DNA of 64,000 nt from Escherichia phage KarlGJung. The notes below the pieces were generated by a model. That model saw only the letters and a program-made list of their open reading frames with translations, was not told the origin of the DNA and did not search any database. Location of the stretch: sequence record MZ501089; one strand, given 5' to 3'. This document shows positions 3,500 through 58,874 of this stretch, one piece after another (positions within the stretch are counted from its first letter, which is position 1; each line of letters begins with the position of its first letter). Position numbers and translations under genes: made by a program.

Positions 3500-3504
3500 T
3501 CAAC

Positions 3505-9812: not shown

Positions 9813-11400
<1,588 letters not shown>

Positions 11401-11408
11401 AATAAAAT

Positions 11409-11422
11409 GGGCCTTGCGGCCC
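11409..11422 (-). other. GNRA-tetraloop hairpin between the Shine-Dalgarno and start codon of denA
   Basis: Minus-sense UAAGGAG-U-GGGCC-GCAA-GGCCC-AUUUUAUU-AUG. Confidence 0.5.
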
Positions 11423-11427
11423 ACTCC

Positions 11428-12606
11428 TTAAAAGTATTTTTTAAAACTCATCATAACTTTATCATCAACATCATTATCAATCTGTGCAACAAGATAAGAT
11501 GACAGTTCTACTTCTTGTGGCGCTGATTGAACATTATCAGAATTAAGATATTCACGAATCCAAGGATATGGATGTTTAACCGGAGCATCGGTAATTGGGC
11601 ATGGAAGACCGCACTGTTTCATACGAGATACAGTTAAGTAATCAATAAAGCTCCACATGCTATTTGTATTTAATCCAGGAACATCGCCATCTTTAAATAA
11701 ATGAACTGCCCAATCTTTTTCTTGACGGTTAACTTCCATGAAAATATCAACTGCTTCTTGTTCACACTCTTGAGCAATTTTAACCCATTCATCACCATCC
11801 GTGCCAAGTTGAAGTTGACGAATAATATATTGTGTACCTTTAAGATGAAGCTGCTCATCACGTGCAATGAACTTCATAATCTTGGCATTACCTTCCATGA
11901 TTTCCATGTTCTTATGGAAGTTAAAGGTACATGCGAAAGATACATAAAAACGAATAGCTTCTAATGCATTAATAACGTGCAAACAGAGGTAAAGAGATTT
12001 CATTAGCTCACGCTTCCAATATGTCTCATGCTCAATAGCATCTTCAATAACGTCTTCGTCTGCATTAATTTCTTTTTGGTATTCGATATCAGCTTTAGCG
12101 TTTTCCCAATAACGAGTTTTAATCAGAACATCATCATAATAACGTCCAATGGATTCAGCACGTTTCATAATAGCTTCATCTAATACAATTTCATCAAATA
12201 CCTTCGATGGATCAGTATAAAGATTTCGCATGATATGTGTATATGAACGGCTGTGAATAGTTTCACTAAAAGTCCATGTAGCAACCCATGTATCAAGGCT
12301 TGGGTCTGAAATTAATGACATAAGTACAGCAGACGGTGCACGACCCTGAATGCTATCCAAAAGTGATTGATACTTCAGGTTGTTAGTAAAAATATTTTGC
12401 TGATACTGAGGAAGCTTATTAAACTGTGCAGCATCCATCATTAAGTTTACTTCTTCAGGACGCCAAAAAAATGATAAAGATTTCTCAATAAGTTCTTCAA
12501 ATACTCTATGTCGTTGAATATCATATCGAGCTAAACCCAATCCAGAACCAAAAAACATCGGCTCAGTCAAAATATTAACAGGGGATGTATTAAAAACTGT
12601 ACTCAT
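11428..12606 (-). CDS. nrdB: ribonucleotide reductase beta subunit (class Ia)
   Basis: 392-aa continuous ORF, ferritin-like RNR small subunit; T4-like N-terminus MSTVFNT...; no intron interruption. Confidence 0.92.
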   Translation of the reverse strand: MSTVFNTSPVNILTEPMFFGSGLGLARYDIQRHRVFEELIEKSLSFFWRPEEVNLMMDAAQFNKLPQYQQNIFTNNLKYQSLLDSIQGRAPSAVLMSLISDPSLDTWVATWTFSETIHSRSYTHIMRNLYTDPSKVFDEIVLDEAIMKRAESIGRYYDDVLIKTRYWENAKADIEYQKEINADEDVIEDAIEHETYWKRELMKSLYLCLHVINALEAIRFYVSFACTFNFHKNMEIMEGNAKIMKFIARDEQLHLKGTQYIIRQLQLGTDGDEWVKIAQECEQEAVDIFMEVNRQEKDWAVHLFKDGDVPGLNTNSMWSFIDYLTVSRMKQCGLPCPITDAPVKHPYPWIREYLNSDNVQSAPQEVELSSYLVAQIDNDVDDKVMMSFKKYF

Positions 12607-13244
12607 TTAGAATCCTTAAATTTACATTTATCATAATGCCATCTTAAAGCATTGCCTTTATTAACTTTCTTGCCACAATGTGGACAAGGCGGATACTCTG
12701 TACCTTGCTTAGTTCTCAAAGAAATCAAATCACGGGTTTCTTTAGTATGAGGAACATCTCTTGTCGGAGAGATTGTACCATACATCGGATTAAGCACGCC
12801 GACTTTAGCAGCAGCTATATTCTTTTTAGCTTCTTCGGTTTTAGGTTTTCTCATGCGAGCTAAATGCTCTTTGGTAAATTTCCTTCCTTTAAGGGCTCTA
12901 CTTATCTTTTCTCTGGTTTCCATAGAAACTTCACGTCCTGTAGCAGCTTCAGATAAACGTCGTCTACCTAATTCGTACAGTTGAGAAGAAATTTTATATG
13001 AGCGATTTTTACCAGTCAAGCACATTAAACCAAAAGCTTTCTTTAATCCTGGGGTGTCATATATTTTACATAAAAGCCAATGAGCTATAAAATGCTCTCT
13101 ACCTGTTAATTCAACTAAATTTTCTTTATCATCAGAACCTCCCATACATCTAGGGATTATATGATGAGTCTCTTTATATCCTAATAAAGGTTCCCGAGCC
13201 TGAGCTCGGGAAATTAGGTCGTTATAGATTTTTTGATAATTCAT
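12603..13244 (-). CDS. mobE: free-standing HNH homing endonuclease (mobE-like)
   Basis: HNH motif HHIIPRCMGGSDDKENLVELTGREHFIAH; repeated NUMOD-like DNA-binding modules (TREKISRALKGRK, TKEHLARMRKPKT, TEEAKKNIAAAKVG); C-terminal Cys/His cluster; lies between nrdA and nrdB like T4 mobE. Confidence 0.7.
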   Translation of the reverse strand: MNYQKIYNDLISRAQAREPLLGYKETHHIIPRCMGGSDDKENLVELTGREHFIAHWLLCKIYDTPGLKKAFGLMCLTGKNRSYKISSQLYELGRRRLSEAATGREVSMETREKISRALKGRKFTKEHLARMRKPKTEEAKKNIAAAKVGVLNPMYGTISPTRDVPHTKETRDLISLRTKQGTEYPPCPHCGKKVNKGNALRWHYDKCKFKDSK

Positions 13245-15508
13245 TACAATTTACAGGATGAACAATCTTCAGCTTTTGGAGTTTCTATTTCATAATCATC
13301 AGTACCAGAACCATCACGGGTATTATGATAATAGAAATTTTTTCCGCCAAAATACCAAAAATACAAAAGGTCATCAATCATTATTGACATTGGAACCTTT
13401 CCTTTTGGAAAAATCTGTGGGTCATAATATGTATTCGCTGAAGCTGATTGACATACCCATTTCAGCATAATAGCTACCTGCGTAAGATAAGGTTTATTAC
13501 CTTTCTTAGCTAATTTCCATGTATAATCATAGAGGTCTATGTTATGCTCAATATTGGGCACGACTTGATTAAAGGAGCCCTCTTTTGATTCTTTAACAGA
13601 GACTGGTCCACGTGGAGGCTCGATACCGTTTGTACTGTTAGAAACTTGGGAAGATGACTCACATGGCATAAGTGCTGATAATGTGCTATTACGGATGCCA
13701 AAGAGCTTAAGGTCTTCCCGCAGCGACGACCAGTCACAAACGTATTTTGGAGCTGCGATTTGGTCAATCTTTTTATTGTACCAGTCGATAGGTAATTCGC
13801 CTCGAGACCAACGAGTGTCTGAATAATATTCACAAGGTCCTTTTTCTTTGGCGAGCTTAATGGATGCTTTAATGAGTCCATACTGTAATCTCTCAAATAG
13901 TTCATGTGTTAAATCGTTAGCATCTTCATAAGAAGCAAAGTTACTTGCCAGCCAAGCTGCATAGTTAGTAACACCTACACCGAGGTTACGACGCTTTTTA
14001 GCTTTTTCTGCTTCAGGAACTGGATATCCTTGGTAATCCAAAAGATTATCAAGAGCACGAACTTGGACTTCTGCCAATTCATTAATTTTATCTTGGTCTT
14101 GCCAGTCAAAATTATCTAGTACGAATGCAGAGAGAGTACACAATCCAATTTCAGCATCAGGACTATTCACATCATTTGTTGGAATAGCAATTTCACAGCA
14201 CAAGTTACTCTGACGAATAGGCGCCTTTTCACGAATAAACGGAGTATAGTTATTCGTATTATCAATGAACTGTACATAAATCCTTGCTGTTCCTGAACGT
14301 TCAGTCATGAGCAATTCAAATAGTTCACGGGCTTTAATACGCTTTTTACGAATATTAGGGTCTTTTTCTGCTGCTTCGTATAATTCACGGAAACGGTTTT
14401 GGTCTTTAAAATAAGAATAATAAAGCTCGCCACCCATTTCATGCGGACTGAACAAAGTAATGTAATCGTTCTTTCCGAATCGTTCCATCATCAAATCATT
14501 CAGCTGAACACCATAATCCATATGACGAATGCGGTTTTCTTCTACGCCTTTGTTATTTTTCAAAACGAGAAGATTTTCAACTTCCAAATGCCAAATAGGA
14601 TAATAAGCAGTAGCAGCGCCGCCACGAATTCCACCCTGTGAGCATGATTTAACTGCAGTCTGAAAATGTTTCCAAAAAGGAATAACACCAGTATGGCGTA
14701 CTTCACCCATGCCAATCTTAGAACCTTCAGCACGAATCATACCAACGTTAATACCAATTCCAGCGCGTTTAGAGATATATTCAACAATTGAAGCGGAAGC
14801 CTTGTTGATAGACTTTAATGAATCACCTGCCTCAATAACAACACATGAACTAAACTGTCGAGTCGGAGTACGACAACCAGCCATAATAGGAGTTGGTAAT
14901 GAAATCTGTCGAGTAGATACTGCTTCATAAAAACGAATAACATGTTTTAATCTATCAACAGGTTCATCTTGATGCAATGCCATTCCAATAGTCATAAATG
15001 CAAACTGAGGAGTTTCATAAATTTGACCAGTGGTTTTATCTTTAACTAAATATTTTTCTTTTAATTGCATCGCCCCGGAATAAGTAAATTCCATATCCCG
15101 CTCGTGCTTAATTTTTGATTCTAAAAATGTAATTTCTTCTGCTGAATATTTTGACAATAATTCAGGGTCATATTTACCTTCATTTACACAGTAAGAAATA
15201 TGGTCAATAAATGAACGCGGTTCATACTGCCCATAAACATGCTTACGAAGAGCGAACATTAGACAACGTGCAGCTACATATTGATAATCAGGCTCTTCAA
15301 CCGAAATAGAATTCGCAGCAGCCTTAATGACAATAGTCTGAATATCATCAGTTGTCATTCCATCACGGAGATAAGATTTAATATTTTCATATAATTCATA
15401 AGGATCTACTGATGTTCCCTCAGCTGCCCAAGATAAAACTTTAATAATTTTTTGTGGGTCAAAGCTCTGAGAAACACCACTACTTTTGATAACATTAATT
15501 AATTGCAT
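13244..15508 (-). CDS. nrdA: ribonucleotide reductase alpha subunit (class Ia)
   Basis: 754 aa; ATP-cone N-terminus, active-site NLCCEI, C-terminal redox cysteines (CSSCKL); T4 NrdA-like start MQLINVIKSSGVSQSF. Confidence 0.95.
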   Translation of the reverse strand: MQLINVIKSSGVSQSFDPQKIIKVLSWAAEGTSVDPYELYENIKSYLRDGMTTDDIQTIVIKAAANSISVEEPDYQYVAARCLMFALRKHVYGQYEPRSFIDHISYCVNEGKYDPELLSKYSAEEITFLESKIKHERDMEFTYSGAMQLKEKYLVKDKTTGQIYETPQFAFMTIGMALHQDEPVDRLKHVIRFYEAVSTRQISLPTPIMAGCRTPTRQFSSCVVIEAGDSLKSINKASASIVEYISKRAGIGINVGMIRAEGSKIGMGEVRHTGVIPFWKHFQTAVKSCSQGGIRGGAATAYYPIWHLEVENLLVLKNNKGVEENRIRHMDYGVQLNDLMMERFGKNDYITLFSPHEMGGELYYSYFKDQNRFRELYEAAEKDPNIRKKRIKARELFELLMTERSGTARIYVQFIDNTNNYTPFIREKAPIRQSNLCCEIAIPTNDVNSPDAEIGLCTLSAFVLDNFDWQDQDKINELAEVQVRALDNLLDYQGYPVPEAEKAKKRRNLGVGVTNYAAWLASNFASYEDANDLTHELFERLQYGLIKASIKLAKEKGPCEYYSDTRWSRGELPIDWYNKKIDQIAAPKYVCDWSSLREDLKLFGIRNSTLSALMPCESSSQVSNSTNGIEPPRGPVSVKESKEGSFNQVVPNIEHNIDLYDYTWKLAKKGNKPYLTQVAIMLKWVCQSASANTYYDPQIFPKGKVPMSIMIDDLLYFWYFGGKNFYYHNTRDGSGTDDYEIETPKAEDCSSCKL

Positions 15509-16066: not shown

Positions 16067-16378
16067 TTACACCGCCATTTTTCCTTTCAAGACGCCGTGG
16101 GACTGATAATCTTTGAGAACGAAATCTTTAGGCCTGAGTTTAAGAATGTATTCCAATTGTTCTTTAGTAGAAAGATAGCGGAATTTATAAGGCAATCCGC
16201 CTATTACCAGTTCACAAAGCTCTTTAGGTTCACGACGCAAAATTTCTTTACATTGTTCTACGTGATTCATATAGATATGAGTATTACCACCGGAAAATAT
16301 CAAATCTCCCGGAATAAGATTACACATCTTAGCTACAATATGAACTAACGTAGCATATGATGCAATATTAAATGGAAG
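16067..16378 (-). CDS. td: thymidylate synthase, exon 2 (spliced to exon 1 at 17395..17943)
   Basis: Exon 2 begins LPFNIASYATLVH (ThyA core). The ORF-track Met at 16379-16381 is the last three intron nucleotides (..AUG). Exon 1 + exon 2 = 286 aa. Confidence 0.92.
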   Translation of the reverse strand, partial: LPFNIASYATLVHIVAKMCNLIPGDLIFSGGNTHIYMNHVEQCKEILRREPKELCELVIGGLPYKFRYLSTKEQLEYILKLRPKDFVLKDYQSHGVLKGKMAV

Positions 16379-17394
16379 CATTATGTTCAGATAAGGTCGT
16401 TAATCTTACCCCGGAATTATATCCAGCTGCATGTCACCATGCAGATCAGACTATATCTCCAACTTGTTAAAGCAAGTTGTCTATCGTTTCGAGTCACTTG
16501 ACCCTACTCCCCAAAGGGATAGTCGTTAGGCATTTATGTAGAACCAATTCCATTTATCAGATTTTACACGATAAGTAACTAATCCAGACGAAATTTTAAA
16601 ATGTCTAGCTGCATCTGCTGCACAATCAAAAATAACCCCATCACATGAAATCTTTTTAATATTACTAGGCTTTTTACCTTTCATCTTTTCTGATATTTTA
16701 GATTTAGTTATGTCTGAATGCTTATGATTAAAGAATGAATTATTTTCACCTGAACGATTTCTGCATTTACTACAAGTATAAGCAGAAGTTTGTATGCGAA
16801 CACCGCACTTACAAAACTTATGGGTTTCTGGATTCCAACGCCCGTTTTTACTTCCGGGTTTACTGTAAAGAGCTTTCCGACCATCAGGTCCAAGTTTAAG
16901 CATCTTAGCTTTAACAGTTTCAGAACGTTTCTTAATAATTTCTTCTTTTAATGGATGCGTAGAACATGTATCACCAAACGTTGCATCAGCAATATTGTAT
17001 CCATTAATTTTAGAATTAAGCTCTTTAATCCAAAAATTTTCTCGTTCAATAATCAAATCTTTCTCATATGGAATTTCTTCCAAAATAGAACATTCAAACA
17101 CATTACCATGTTTGTTAAAAGACCTCTGAAGCTTTATAGAAGAATGGCATCCTTTTTCTAAATCTTTAAAATGCCTCTTCCATCTCTTTTCAAAATCTTT
17201 AGCACTTCCTACATATACTTTATTGTTTAAAGTATTTTTAATCTGATAAATTCCGCTTTTCATAAATACCTCTTTAAATATAGAAGTATTTATTAAAGGG
17301 CAGTCCTACAATTTAGCACGGGATTGTCTACTAGAGAGGTTCCCCGTTTAGATAGATTACAAGTATAAGTCACCTTATACTCAGGCCTCAATTA
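16379..17394 (-). mobile_element. group I self-splicing intron in td, carrying the I-TevI gene (1016 nt)
   Basis: Exon 1 ends ...FLG (last nt U), then in-frame TAA and the sequence UAAUUGAGGCCUGAGUAUAAGGUGACUUAUACUUGUAAUCUAUCUAAACGGGG...; intron ends ...AUAAUG (terminal G) before CUUCCAUUUAAU. Length and ends match the T4 td intron as I recall it. Confidence 0.9.
16526..17263 (-). CDS. I-TevI: GIY-YIG homing endonuclease I-TevI (intron-encoded)
   Basis: 245 aa; N-terminal GIY-YIG domain (MKSGIYQIKNTLNNKVYVGSAKDFEKRWKRH); zinc finger CKCGVRIQTSAYTCSKC; C-terminal DNA-binding domain; lies inside the td intron. Confidence 0.95.
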   Translation of the reverse strand: MKSGIYQIKNTLNNKVYVGSAKDFEKRWKRHFKDLEKGCHSSIKLQRSFNKHGNVFECSILEEIPYEKDLIIERENFWIKELNSKINGYNIADATFGDTCSTHPLKEEIIKKRSETVKAKMLKLGPDGRKALYSKPGSKNGRWNPETHKFCKCGVRIQTSAYTCSKCRNRSGENNSFFNHKHSDITKSKISEKMKGKKPSNIKKISCDGVIFDCAADAARHFKISSGLVTYRVKSDKWNWFYINA

Positions 17395-17943
17395 ACCCAA
17401 GAAAACATCTACTGATCGTTGATACCACTGAAGGTCAAGGTATCCATTACGCACATTAAACTGATAGAACATATGACAAGGCGGTAATGCCATATATTTA
17501 AGTTCAGCTGGATTCCATGCTGAAACAATTTGACGCCTATCATTTGGCAGTTTTTTAATACGATCAATAGTTTCAACTAATTGATCCACACCGCCGAAAT
17601 CACGCCATTGTTTACCGTATATAGGACCAAGTTCACCACTATGATATCCTAGGTCTTTAGCCTGGTTTTCATAGTTATCGTCCCAAATAGTTTTACCTTG
17701 AATAAGACTACCATGTGTGCGAAGACGTAAATCATTAACATTGGTAGAACCGGAAATAAACCATAGAAGCTCAGCAATGCATGCATTCCACGCAAGCTTC
17801 TTAGTTGTTACCGCAGGAAAACCTTTAGTTAAATCCCAACGTAATTTAGTACCGAACAAAGCAATTGTTCCTGTGCCTGTTCGGTCATCGGTTTCATAGC
17901 CATTTTCAAAAATGTCTTTAATTAAATCTTGGTATTGTTTCAT
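17395..17943 (-). CDS. td: thymidylate synthase, exon 1
   Basis: 183 codons, MKQYQDLIKDIFENGYETDDRTGTGT... through catalytic ...LPPCHMFYQF... to ...VDVFLG, followed by intron-borne TAA. Confidence 0.92.
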
Positions 17944-20733: not shown

Positions 20734-21642
20734 TTAAAGGTCATTCAAAAGGTCATCCAGGTCCGTGTCATCAGCACTAGATGAACTGCCAGAGCTTGAG
20801 CTCATAAAATCATCTTCAGTTTTTGTATTGAAGTCATCAACATTGAATGCATCCAAATCATCAGCAACTTTATCAGCTTTCTTAGCAGCAGTTGCAGCGG
20901 CACCGCCCATCACAGCAGTTCCCATAACTTGACCGAATTTAGTGCTCAGTTCTTCAAACGATTTGAATTTATCTTTAGAAGTCATTTCAGAAAGGTCAAC
21001 CATTTGTTCGAACAGTTCTTTCTGGAAAGATTCATCGTCAATGTTTGGAATCGCAGATTGATTCAGGAATTTAGATTCGTCGTAGTTACTAAATCCAGAA
21101 ACCTGTTTAACTTTCAGTACAAAGTTAGCACCTTCCCATGGACAAGTTACATCAACCGGAGTTTCACCCATTTCAACATCAACCGCAATCATCGCGTTGA
21201 TTTTATCCCAGATTTTCTTACCGAAACGATATTTAAATACTTTACCTTCATTTTCTGGAGCAGCTGGGTCTTTTACAACAAGAATATTAGCCCAGTAAGA
21301 AGTTTTACGTTTAACAAGACTGTACTCTTTATTGTCAGTGTTGTACAGATCATTTTTACTGATGTACTGACATACTGGACAAGAATCGTAATCACCGTGG
21401 GTAGATGAACAGTTTTCAATATACCATTTACCATTTTTCTTGAAACCGTGATTTACAAGAATTGCGAATGGTGCTTGTTCATCATTTTTAGACGGAAGAA
21501 AACGAATTACTGCTTGACCGTTACCCGCATTGTCGAGTTTCAGTTTCCACTCGCCTTTATCTTCAGAAGAAAAACCACCTTTATTTCCAGCCAGTTTAGC
21601 CATTTGTGCAGCGAGTTCAGCAGTAGATTTACGTTTAAACAT
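20734..21642 (-). CDS. 32: gp32 single-stranded DNA-binding protein
   Basis: [17 protein letters not shown]..., zinc site [16 protein letters not shown], acidic Ser/Asp-rich C-terminus; matches T4 gp32. Confidence 0.97.
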
Positions 21643-21712
21643 TTTTATTTCCTTTTTAATTTAATTAACAGTTGGTGCTATGACGATGTATGACCTCATA
21701 GCTGGTCAGTGA
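21643..21712 (-). promoter_or_regulatory. gene 32 translational operator (pseudoknot plus A/U-rich leader)
   Basis: Minus-sense leader ...ACUGACCAGCUAUGAGGUCAUACAUCGUCAUAGCACC... then AUUAAAUUAAAAAGGAAAUAAAA-AUG; matches the T4 gene 32 autoregulatory operator as I recall it. Confidence 0.65.
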
Positions 21713-21725
21713 GATAATTATAATC

Positions 21726-21733
21726 TATTTATA
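21726..21733 (-). promoter_or_regulatory. late promoter (TATAAATA) for gene 32
   Basis: Exact minus-sense TATAAATA between gene 59 and gene 32. Confidence 0.55.
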
Positions 21734-21741
21734 ATAAGCAA

Positions 21742-22395
21742 TTAATACTTGCAAGATTTCACAGTTTCAATGAAAACATTTTTAGCTTTCTGTGAATCAA
21801 TATTTAAAATTTTTCTATAAGCCTTTAACTTTATAGAATAATTATTCCAGACTAAATTATCAGTCTGTTCATCATGTTTATCAATTATATTTAAAAACGA
21901 ATCAAGCAAGATAAACGTTTCAAACGAAATTATATTCGATTGAAGTAGTTTAAAAATATAACTTGATTGAACTTTTGGATTATACTCAAAGATTTCTTTA
22001 AAAGCAGAAACTTCAACTTTCTTACTAAAATAATAAATGTTGCGAATATCTTCTTCAAACTTAAATTTAATTTGCTTTAAGCGTCCGATATATTCACGAT
22101 AAAACACAAGTGCATCAGCGTCAGAGATGTCGCCAATCCAAGCATCCTGGTTAGCAACAAGATTGCTTATAAAGATTAAAGCAAGTTCCTTTAATTTATA
22201 TTTTTCTGATAACTTCTGGAAAAAATACTTATCCCTTCGCTTTTGATAAGCGGCATCAGACACCCGCATGCACCAATTATACTTAATAACATCATACTTT
22301 CCATTCATATGTTGTTTTATCATTAAGTATAATTTATAAACTGATTTACCATCAATGTATCTTTCACCACCAGCAGGCATGCGGAGTTTAATCAT
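21742..22395 (-). CDS. 59: gp59 helicase loader
   Basis: 217-aa ORF between genes 33 and 32, matching T4 gp59 size and position. Confidence 0.85.
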   Translation of the reverse strand: MIKLRMPAGGERYIDGKSVYKLYLMIKQHMNGKYDVIKYNWCMRVSDAAYQKRRDKYFFQKLSEKYKLKELALIFISNLVANQDAWIGDISDADALVFYREYIGRLKQIKFKFEEDIRNIYYFSKKVEVSAFKEIFEYNPKVQSSYIFKLLQSNIISFETFILLDSFLNIIDKHDEQTDNLVWNNYSIKLKAYRKILNIDSQKAKNVFIETVKSCKY

Positions 22396-45234: not shown

Positions 45235-45268
45235 TTAATTATACCACATCCTTGTGGTAAAGTAAACT
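45235..45268 (-). promoter_or_regulatory. early promoter upstream of the rIIA operon
   Basis: Minus-sense (A)GTTTAC, 18 nt, TATAAT. Confidence 0.55.
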
Positions 45269-47084
45269 ACTGGCTCATCCATTCTTTACGAAGGTCAGCA
45301 TTATCTCCCATGAGCATTTCAAAAAGCTCTTTCCAGTTCTCAGGAAGTTTAACAACATCATATACTGGATTTTGAATCATCTCACGATATTCAGATTTTT
45401 CCAAAGAGCCAAGTCCTTTAATATAACGGATGCTATGTTTAGGTAGAGCATCTTTAGCACTCTCATATTCAGCGACTGTATAAAACCATTCTTGTTTTTT
45501 ACCGACCTGAGCGATGATTACAGGAGTTTTGACAAAACGAATTCTTCCTTGCTCAAACAGTTCTGGCCAATTACTAAAAAACCCGAGCAGAGAAGGATAA
45601 ATGCTTCCTAGACCATCATGGTCAGCATCAGTCATAATAGCAATATTATGATAATTCAAGTTTTCAGCTTTTTCACCGAGAACTAATCCAGTGATTGCGC
45701 AAATATCAAATAGTTCTTTGTTTTTAAGCATATCTGCATAAGACATACCCCAACTGTTGAGAACTTTACCGCGCAATGGATAACCACCGTGAAGTTCTTT
45801 ATCACGAACATCAATAAGATATCCGATAGCCGAATCACCCTCAGTCAAGAAAAGAGTAGTGTCAGCATCTTTACCACAAAGATTCGCTTTGATATGTTTA
45901 TGAACCTTAGCTTTAGAAGCCTTTTTAGCTGCTTTAGTTTCTGCTGCTTTTTCTGCCGCCAATTTACGAGCCAAAGCAGCTTCAATAATCGGCATTAGAA
46001 TTGCTTCATTATTTAGAATAGCGCGTGAAATCTTTTTAGCATCAAGTTGAATATGACTACGAATTTCGCCAAATGGAGAAGTCAAACGCTCTTTAGTTTG
46101 AGAATCAAATCGCATGTTTTTCATATCACGAACAAACATAACGATAGTCAAACATTCTTTAACACGCGCTTTAGTTACATCAATTTTGAACTTACGTTTG
46201 ATTTGTGGAATAAGGTCTTCACAAATATCATCCATAACACAGTCAATGTGATGGCCACCATTCTTAGTGTGAATGTTATTGACGTATGTTAATTGACGAA
46301 AACCATCCGGTGAACGACCAACCGCAATAGAACAATTTTCTTGTTCTTGAACAATAGCATGCTCATCATATTGGCGTGCATATTTCTTAAAATTGCCCTG
46401 AACCTTTTTACCATTAAAGGTAAATTGAATATCAGGATAAACTACTGCAAGTGTCTGGAGACGATCTAGTGTAATGTCAAGATAAACTTGGGACAGCTCA
46501 TTAGTTTCAAATGACATAAAATCAGGAATGAAAGTAACACGAGTTCCTTTCCATTTTCCAGGAATAGTTTCCCATGATTTATTTTCCATGCCATTTGAAC
46601 AACGAACTACAATATTATTTTGACCATCACCAGTTTCACCGACAAACATCACAGAAAAAATGTTTGTCAAACTAGAACCAACACCATTCATACCGCCAGT
46701 GACGCGTTCTTTATCATCACCGAAGTTACCACCTGCTTTTGGAATAGTCCATGCAGCAACAGGACCAGGAATTTCTTCACCGGTAGGTGTTTTAACCATC
46801 GCCTGCGGAATACCACGACCGTTATCTTCAACTGTTACTTGATTGTTTTTAATAGTAACATTAATTTTATTTGCGAATTTAAACTTAGTACGAATACCTT
46901 CATCTACTGAGTTATCGATAATTTCATCAATAAGCTTAACAAGACCAGGTACATACTGAACACTTTCCCATTTACCAAACAGAAAGCGCTCATGCATTTC
47001 ATTAGCAGAAGAGCCAATATACATGCCGCTACGCTTTTTGATATGTTCAATATCGCTCAGAATTTTAATTTCATTCTTAATCAT
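45267..47084 (-). CDS. 39: gp39 DNA topoisomerase II large subunit (GyrB-like), unsplit
   Basis: 605/606-aa continuous ORF with GHKL ATPase region and TOPRIM-like region; C-terminal part corresponds to what is the separate gene 60 product in T4. Confidence 0.92.
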   Translation of the reverse strand: MIKNEIKILSDIEHIKKRSGMYIGSSANEMHERFLFGKWESVQYVPGLVKLIDEIIDNSVDEGIRTKFKFANKINVTIKNNQVTVEDNGRGIPQAMVKTPTGEEIPGPVAAWTIPKAGGNFGDDKERVTGGMNGVGSSLTNIFSVMFVGETGDGQNNIVVRCSNGMENKSWETIPGKWKGTRVTFIPDFMSFETNELSQVYLDITLDRLQTLAVVYPDIQFTFNGKKVQGNFKKYARQYDEHAIVQEQENCSIAVGRSPDGFRQLTYVNNIHTKNGGHHIDCVMDDICEDLIPQIKRKFKIDVTKARVKECLTIVMFVRDMKNMRFDSQTKERLTSPFGEIRSHIQLDAKKISRAILNNEAILMPIIEAALARKLAAEKAAETKAAKKASKAKVHKHIKANLCGKDADTTLFLTEGDSAIGYLIDVRDKELHGGYPLRGKVLNSWGMSYADMLKNKELFDICAITGLVLGEKAENLNYHNIAIMTDADHDGLGSIYPSLLGFFSNWPELFEQGRIRFVKTPVIIAQVGKKQEWFYTVAEYESAKDALPKHSIRYIKGLGSLEKSEYREMIQNPVYDVVKLPENWKELFEMLMGDNADLRKEWMSQ

Positions 47085-47107
47085 CACTTATCCTCGTTTG
47101 GTTTCGG

Positions 47108-58295: not shown

Positions 58296-58814
58296 TTAAT
58301 AACCTCGGTCTTGACGAACGAAATTTTCAGCATTTTTCAGATAATAAAGTTTAAAGATTTCTTCTGCTGTAAGACCAAGACCTTGAAACATGTTCAGAAC
58401 AAAATGGAGAATATCAATCATTTCGAATTTGATTTCTAACTGGTCCTGTGGAGACAAATCAGTAATCAGAGTTTCACGACGTTCACCATGCTGAGCTTTC
58501 CACGGCTTCCATACAGCAGATGCATCTTTTTCGCCATTGCTCATACCACCAAGAGAAGTCAGAAGTTCGCGGAATTCATCATCAATATAATCTTTCTGAT
58601 TACGCAGCCAATCAACAACTTCACCTGCAGTAGCCAAATCATCAGGATGACGGTTATATTCAGGTTTATCTTTAGCTAAACGAATCTGCAGAGATTTCTG
58701 CATGTCAAGCATTACCTGCAGCGGGTCTTTTTCATCACCGAGAATATCCCAATATTCATTTTGAGCTTTATCAGCGCCTTCGATCAGTTGACTACATTCG
58801 TTAAAGTAAGCCAT
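58296..58814 (-). CDS. 56: gp56 dCTPase/dUTPase (MazG-like)
   Basis: About 172 aa from the ATG (MAYFNECSQLIEGADKAQNEYWD...); track start is TTG, 5 codons upstream. Confidence 0.85.
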   Translation of the reverse strand: MAYFNECSQLIEGADKAQNEYWDILGDEKDPLQVMLDMQKSLQIRLAKDKPEYNRHPDDLATAGEVVDWLRNQKDYIDDEFRELLTSLGGMSNGEKDASAVWKPWKAQHGERRETLITDLSPQDQLEIKFEMIDILHFVLNMFQGLGLTAEEIFKLYYLKNAENFVRQDRGY

Positions 58815-58874
58815 TATTTTTCCTTTCAATTCATTAATAAGTTAAATAATTATATCATTTGAGTATGTAAGCAA

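Follow-up and report, generated by a model that had tools for sequence, protein, structure and literature searches.

What is the open reading frame (ORF) that Escherichia phage KarlGJung carries between nrdA and nrdB, the genes that encode aerobic ribonucleotide reductase's large and small subunits, and does it act on the gene that follows it? We examined this ORF in a stretch of 64,000 nucleotides (nt) from sequence record MZ501089 (the window, to which all coordinates refer). The window is part of a T6-like Tequatrovirus, a T4-like phage genome, and the ORF is the already described gene mobE, present in its T6 version and in its usual context. We estimate at roughly 80% the probability that this T6-type allele encodes a free-standing HNH homing endonuclease that is active as has been shown for its T4 counterpart.

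The gene order around mobE is that of T4, with pseT, rnlA, denA, nrdB, mobE, nrdA, nrdA.1, nrdA.2, and td all on the minus strand, as are the features of the locus described below. nrdA extends from 13244 to 15508 (754 amino acids [aa]; Pfam Ribonuc_red_lgC, Ribonuc_red_lgN, and ATP-cone), mobE from 12603 to 13244 (213 aa), and nrdB from 11428 to 12606 (392 aa; Pfam Ribonuc_red_sm). An earlier reading of the same DNA, made from the sequence alone (the original prediction), had placed a 213-aa HNH/NUMOD endonuclease ORF exactly between the two reductase genes and had noticed that it overlaps the nrdA stop codon. Both statements hold. The nrdA stop and the mobE start share 1 nt within TAATGA, the junction reading ...AAATTGTAATGAATT...; at the other end the mobE stop and the nrdB start overlap by 4 nt as ATGA, a feature that had gone unmentioned (...TCTAAATGAGT...). 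The prediction had proposed a profile search for the two domains, and both were found above the Pfam cut-offs: NUMOD3 (PF07460) with an expect value (E) of 1.1e-8 (35.3 bits; cut-off, 20.4) and HNH (PF01844) with an E of 8.6e-5 (23.0 bits; cut-off, 21.4). The product also matched PHROG 655, "homing endonuclease," with an E of 4.8e-67.

MobE of T6 (AY262134.2, ABI48942.1; also MH550421 and AP018814) likewise has 213 aa and is 99.1% identical to the window protein by tblastn. The original prediction had suggested a comparison of the nrdA-nrdB region across T-even genomes, and T6 indeed carries the same mobE beside an intron-less nrdB. It also shares with the window the slot, the TAATGA and ATGA overlaps, the nrdB haplotype at the nick site (see below), and the intron in td. 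The differences are few. Two residues of MobE, at positions 21 and 22 just after a terminator hairpin, are Leu-Gly in the window and Ser-Glu in T6; nt 351 to 650 of the window nrdB follow the type found in phage Aplg8; and the 3' end of the window nrdA is T2-like right up to mobE, with 2 mismatches to T2 and 6 to T6 in its last 50 nt. Over the 4.8-kb region, the best match was phage AdolfPortmann (98.4%), and T6 reached 96.3%. An exact (100%) match to the window MobE came only from Logan/ENA assemblies (2 contigs), none being present in NCBI phage records, where the nearest entries to 12603-13244 are 98 to 99% identical.

The position of mobE, its low, coupled expression, and its action on nrdB have all been published, and a T6 record with the same layout is in GenBank. 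T4 mobE was characterized by Wilson and Edgell in 2009, who included the T6 record in their comparison (PMC2790892). The targeting of the nrd locus that the original prediction had deduced from the gene arrangement agrees with this work, in which nrdB was identified as the target of the T4 allele.

The HNH catalytic motif spans aa 24 to 55 (KETHHIIPRCMGGSDDKENLVELTGREHFIAH; 13080-13175), with the Pfam HNH match at aa 24 to 44. Residues H27, H28, N42, E50, H51, and H55 of this motif are invariant in 40 homologues. In a predicted structural model (mean predicted local distance difference test score [pLDDT], 86.6), the motif is modeled as strand-strand-helix at residues 25 to 28, 43 to 46, and 48 to 61, with pLDDT values above 90. 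The best-scoring NUMOD3 repeat lies at aa 103 to 121 (12882-12938), and a Cys-X2-Cys...His-X3-Cys module is found in the C-terminal part (C187, C190, H203, and C207; 12624-12686), its four residues again invariant in 40 homologues. We infer that this module binds zinc and contributes to DNA binding.

The MobE protein is maintained under purifying selection. The ratio of nonsynonymous to synonymous substitution rates (dN/dS) was 0.10 between the window and Klebsiella phage Boboto and 0.15 between the window and phage LHE83, and it ranged from 0.07 to 0.17 across all three thirds of the protein. Because of these values against orthologues from other genera, and because of the 99.1% identity to T6 MobE, ORF 12603-13244 is not a chance reading frame. 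The 642-nt ORF was intact in the eight carriers that we read, from three genera, among them the window phage, T6, SHFML-26, HY03, and HMD-9 (Tequatrovirus), Boboto (Jiaodavirus), and LHE83 (Dhakavirus). The synonymous rate (dS) between the window and Boboto was 0.55 for mobE and 1.64 for nrdB; the mobE value is a third of that of nrdB, which would fit a transfer of mobE between genera that postdates the divergence of the host genes.

The signals at the start of the gene point to low expression, as the original prediction had suggested from a weak ribosome-binding site (RBS). No Shine-Dalgarno-like sequence was found in the 25 nt before the mobE ATG (aagattgttcatcctgtaaattgtaATG), and the start codon overlaps the nrdA stop as UAAUGA. 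The T4 gene is built in the same way: it has no translation-initiation region of its own (PMC2988022), is co-transcribed with nrdA without a promoter, and is probably coupled to nrdA translation through the UAAUGA overlap (PMC2790892; PMC2988022). Inside the 5' end of the window mobE lies an intrinsic-terminator hairpin (TTCCCGAGC-TCAG-GCTCGGGAA, tail CCTTTATTAG; 13191-13212) identical to that of T4, which has been described as a 9-bp stem with a 4-nt loop, 27 nt after the AUG, and as a terminator of 30 to 50% efficiency (PMC2790892). In the window, a 4-nt loop closes a 9-bp stem whose distance from the AUG is 29 nt. The predicted fold has a free energy of -21.3 kcal/mol (z-score, -3.9). Across 8 phages from 4 genera, 97% of the cells were paired, and one pair of the stem is compensated: Boboto and KM16 have G-C where the other six phages have A-U.

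Within 13181-13218, the window reads TTATTAGG, which gives the Leu-Gly of MobE residues 21 and 22, where T4 and T6 read TTATCCGA (Ser-Glu). The TTATTAGG variant is also found in Boboto. It permits CCUAAU/AUUAGG pairing, by which the terminator hairpin is lengthened across its U-tract.

How close, then, is the window allele to the T4 protein that was studied experimentally? The T4 MobE is longer (232 aa versus 213 aa) and 71% identical over its full length, and the differences are concentrated in one place. Each of the two alleles is a mosaic: T4 and T6 have in common the HNH domain (the first ~55 aa) and 85 aa at the C terminus, whereas the central ~73 aa are replaced. The slot, the hairpin, the start overlap, and the nrdB expression signals at the 3' end are also shared. 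The allele-specific central cassette comprises aa ~57 to 129 (12858-13075), that is, the post-HNH helices, the linker, and the NUMOD3 repeats. By sliding DNA identity, it is only ~45% identical to T4 and has sharp bounds, whereas the flanks (nrdA, nrdB, and, within mobE, the first ~170 nt and the last ~255 nt) are 96 to 100% identical. The T4 cassette is 57 nt longer and holds one extra NUMOD3-like repeat.

The two cassettes are unevenly distributed. The T6-type cassette occurs in 35 Tequatrovirus records at 95% identity or more and, at 89%, in 3 Jiaodavirus phages of Klebsiella; only 22 records, every one from T4 itself or a very close relative, have the T4 cassette. The T6-type allele is thus commoner, and the T4 allele on which the experiments were done looks like a rare variant. 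A 642-nt mobE sits in the same nrdA-nrdB slot of Boboto and LHE83. More distant versions were found in the Moonvirus KM16, where we read the mobE/nrdB junction, and in Acinetobacter phage Melin, where the gene is annotated between nrdA and nrdB. A survey of IMG/VR with NrdB returned 34 loci, none with a T6-type mobE; these loci contributed mobE-less haplotypes and one remnant of the gene (L031; see below).

A third occupant of the slot was found in Aplg8 (981-1727), Ptacy1496 (1501-2232), Sf23, and an IMG/VR locus (L009). This protein of HNH-NUMOD1 type has the TAATG overlap and agrees with the window MobE over the first ~60 codons, in which the hairpin lies; its C-terminal 180 aa are unrelated, its total length is 243 to 248 aa, and related proteins (P0071 and P0074) carry Pfam NUMOD1. 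Its breakpoint lies near the 5' edge of the cassette that distinguishes T4 from T6. The nrdA-nrdB slot is a shuffling site.

We then turned to the presumed target. In T2 nrdB, the MobE-dependent nick of T4 falls at nt 122 to 126, and phages that carry mobE are polymorphic at nt 114 to 131, beside a conserved block encoding FFWRPEE, which Wilson and Edgell proposed as the binding site of MobE's DNA-binding module (PMC2790892). In the window, the nick region corresponds to 12476-12493 and the FFWRPEE block, also conserved here, to 12451-12471. The codons at the nick site read GAG AAA TCT TTA TCA in the window, GAA AAG CAG TTG TCA in T2, and GAG CGG CAG ATC AGT in T4. Codon 43 of the window nrdB (12478-12480) is therefore TCT for Ser, where Gln is otherwise near-universal. 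Six T6-type carriers were read base by base (the window phage, T6, SHFML-26, Boboto, HY03, and HMD-9), and all six had Ser43 as TCT. Over an 80-nt stretch spanning the nick site, 32 of the 35 Tequatrovirus records with the cassette were at least 95% identical to the window; those below this value were HY03 (two records) and HMD-9, both read directly.

The nrdB resistance haplotypes track the MobE allele. Nearly all T4-like phages without mobE have EKQLS at this position (EKQLSFFWRP), whereas T4 has ERQIS, LHE83 and KM16 have EKQLG, and the T6-type carriers have EKSLS. The T6 haplotype alters all three bases of codon 43, and the T4 haplotype alters codons 42, 44, and 45.

This pattern gives weight to a reading that overlaps with ours, namely, that the gene is the same and its specificity is not. 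T6-type MobE would then nick at another position or another nrdB variant, and the alleles could attack each other's nrdB. The sharply bounded, ~45% identical cassette between nearly identical flanks favors a change of specificity, as does the pairing of every MobE variant with an nrdB haplotype of its own, altered at codon 43 in one case and around it in the other. Against it, the two alleles are essentially identical in the HNH domain and over the last 85 aa, with the Cys/His module, and all the haplotypes fall within the same four codons (42 to 45). On balance we consider a different specificity possible but clearly the less probable case. A broader scenario built on it is more tentative still: the T6-type MobE may be the mainstream and probably ancestral form, the cassette and the Gln43Ser exchange may reflect a distinct specificity, and the MobE alleles, with the other HNH proteins of the slot that have the same N-terminal module, may compete by attacking each other's nrdB, driving the shuffling of cassettes at a fixed breakpoint just after the HNH motif.

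Several points weigh against the view that the window allele acts as T4 MobE does. The literature that we reached contains no experiment on a T6-type MobE protein. Its central third is unrelated in DNA to the tested T4 allele, and the protein is 19 aa shorter. This replaced third presumably comprises the linker and some of the DNA-binding region, and the nick position or the specificity of T6-type MobE may therefore differ from that of T4. The TTATTAGG variant may alter the terminator and its efficiency, to judge from the pairing that it allows. Finally, nicking by T4 MobE was shown in vivo only, and its authors could not exclude an action through another nuclease (PMC2790892).

If the T6-type allele nonetheless works as a homing endonuclease, its course can be outlined by analogy with the T4 allele, on which the transcription pattern, the terminator efficiency, the nicking, and the inheritance above Mendelian expectation were described. 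mobE would be transcribed on the nrdA message, with neither a promoter nor an RBS of its own, and the hairpin, ~30 nt from the start of the gene, would end about a third to a half of the transcripts. The remainder would probably be translated at a low level by termination and reinitiation at UAAUGA. In a mixed infection with a relative that lacks mobE, the NUMOD3 and Cys/His modules would bind the FFWRPEE-coding block of the relative's nrdB, and the N-terminal HNH domain would nick the noncoding strand around codon 42. In the recombinational repair that follows, the donor genome would serve as the source of mobE and its flanks, so that the gene would be inherited more often than Mendelian expectation. 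The carrier's own nrdB would escape through substitutions in codons 42 to 44, notably Gln43 (CAG) to Ser (TCT). The 3' end of mobE supplies the RBS of nrdB and probably its middle promoter, such that a clean deletion of mobE would be penalized.

Traces of such events may be preserved in phages that lack the gene. In 121/2022-2B and SHFML-11, mobE is missing and a 51-bp spacer of T2 type separates nrdA from nrdB; the Ser43 patch of T6 type is nonetheless present in the nrdB of both. In 121/2022-2B, nt 1 to 100 of nrdB are T2-like and nt 101 to 150 are T6-like, which is what a short conversion tract from the nick would leave, an indirect footprint of homing; SHFML-11 has a short tract of this kind as well. 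The T2-like nrdA 3' end of the window and the dS of mobE, below that of the flanking genes, are further indirect footprints. The allele-specific nrdB haplotypes, together with mobE-less phages that have only the resistant patch, constitute a natural data set for the co-evolution of an endonuclease and its target. The value of these observations is modest and comparative, since the pattern of cassettes and haplotypes refines a known system and does not define a new type. Sandegren et al. (2005) reportedly gave the first description of the endonuclease Hef and compared mobE among T-even phages, and the cassette difference may already be described there.

A second variable segment lies farther into nrdB, at nt ~495 to 600 (12018-12107; NrdB aa ~165 to 200). 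Within a gene that is otherwise 97 to 100% identical, this segment is hypervariable, with at least six unrelated cassettes and small indels among closely related Tequatrovirus phages. The version of the window is common to Aplg8 and Ptacy1496 and nearly that of T2 and LHE83; T4 and T6 share another. The idea that this segment might be another resistance patch, linked to whichever gene fills the slot, was rejected, as the variants do not track the occupant.

Could the gene instead be an inactive passenger, its nuclease dead and its reading frame kept for the nrdB expression signals in its 3' end? Such signals are present. The nrdB start is preceded by AAGGA, 6 nt upstream of the ATG (12613-12617) and inside the mobE coding sequence, and the last ~225 nt of mobE, ~96% identical to T4, hold this Shine-Dalgarno sequence and two promoter-like sites. 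The first is a candidate MotA-type middle promoter of nrdB (TGCTTAA, 12 nt, TACAAT; 12772-12796), found by pattern match in a region 96 to 100% identical to T4; when MotA-type middle promoters were sought by regular expression, the strict form had no match and a relaxed version matched a single site. The second candidate (AATGCTTTA, resembling a MotA box, then 9 nt and TATGAT; 12630-12653) is identical in T4 and T6. Middle promoters usually have a spacer of 11 to 13 nt, and this second element is uncertain because its spacer is shorter. Wilson and Edgell have argued that a promoter of nrdB within mobE selects against deletion of mobE (PMC2790892). The 3' part can also be retained alone: the IMG/VR phage L031 keeps, between nrdA and nrdB and upstream of nrdB (at 3501), only a decayed and frameshifted mobE remnant of ~168 nt. 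This remnant retains the AATGCT... and AAGGA elements ahead of the nrdB start, which would fit selection that preserved the embedded expression signals once the endonuclease had been lost. Against this reading, the low dN/dS extends over all three thirds of the protein and not just the 3' end, every catalytic and Cys/His residue is invariant, the full 642-nt ORF is intact in carriers from three genera, and 35 Tequatrovirus records match the central cassette at 95% identity or more. We therefore regard an inactive gene as improbable.

Less probable again is that MobE is not a nuclease itself and directs or regulates another phage endonuclease that cuts nrdB, an option raised by Wilson and Edgell, who never obtained in vitro activity of T4 MobE (PMC2790892). 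Against this, the HNH motif is complete, invariant, and under purifying selection, and its deletion in T4 abolished the nick (PMC2790892). A sequence search of the PDB with MobE gave only marginal matches to the HNH motif (E of 0.19 to 0.89), fold searches of solved structures gave weak HNH matches, and I-HmuI was recovered by neither; NCBIfam yielded only a subthreshold match to the IscB HNH domain.

That the ORF belongs to an intron or intein, like other endonucleases of the region (I-TevI in the window td and I-TevIII in the nrdB of T4 and SHFML-26), can be set aside, as its start overlaps the stop codon of nrdA and its end the start codon of nrdB, both reductase genes are full length, and no group I intron signal was found in 11300-13500 with Rfam at E up to 1. 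An I-TevIII-type intron-encoded endonuclease was rejected on the same junction sequences, on this negative search, and on the empty intron site in nrdB. The original prediction had read nrdB as one uninterrupted ORF and the endonuclease as intronless, and both readings stand.

The empty site lies after nt 676 of nrdB (11930-11931), ~550 nt downstream of the nick site, as located by comparison with T4, SHFML-26, SHFML-11, and U5. The intron at this site measures 598 nt in T4, where its I-TevIII is defunct, and ~1,083 to 1,090 nt in SHFML-26, SHFML-11, and U5. Among the 33 full-length matches to the region that were listed, only 5 records, from 3 phages, had the ~1.09-kb intron (vB_ECOLIGBLB0003, SHFML-26, and HY03); T6-type mobE usually accompanies an intron-less nrdB. 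In SHFML-11, the nrdB intron carries a full-length endonuclease ORF.

Several known endonucleases resemble MobE in location or in type. Hef of phage U5 (AY262133.2) occupies the same nrdA-nrdB slot, next to an intron-containing nrdB, but it has 544 aa and no tblastn match to MobE. It is reported to cleave nrdB and was termed "a unique endonuclease" in the review of Edgell et al. (PMC2988022). MobE of Aeromonas phage Aeh1 is an HNH protein of the mob family associated with the aerobic ribonucleotide reductase genes; its insertion within nrdA divides that gene in two, whereas the window nrdA is intact, and its regulation involves a hairpin that sequesters the RBS and an RNase E site (PMC2988022). 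Wilson and Edgell likened MobE to I-HmuI and I-HmuII, with an HNH nicking domain, an extended DNA-binding region, and homing by nick repair (PMC2790892). These HNH nicking enzymes of Bacillus phages are intron encoded and had no sequence or fold match to the window MobE.

Elsewhere in the window, several endonuclease insertions of T4 are presumably absent, judging from ORF sizes and the T4 map (20734-22395, 45267-47087, and 58296-58829). We take it that segG is missing between the gene 32-like (302 aa) and gene 59-like (217 aa) ORFs, that a single gene 39-like ORF of 606 aa replaces the split 39/mobA/60 arrangement, and that no ORF of the size of segF lies beside the gene 56-like ORF. As in T6, the window combines an empty nrdB site with an occupied td. 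The td gene (16067-17943, minus strand) has two exons, exon 1 (17392-17943) and exon 2 (16067-16381), with a group I intron of ~1,010 nt between them. A search of the whole window against Rfam gave no matches at gathering thresholds; the td intron scored 42.5 bits for Intron_gpI, below the gathering score of 50. The I-TevI ORF within it (16526-17263) matched the I-TevI chains of PDB entries 1I3J, 1MK0, and 1LN0 with E values of 1e-61 to 1e-77.

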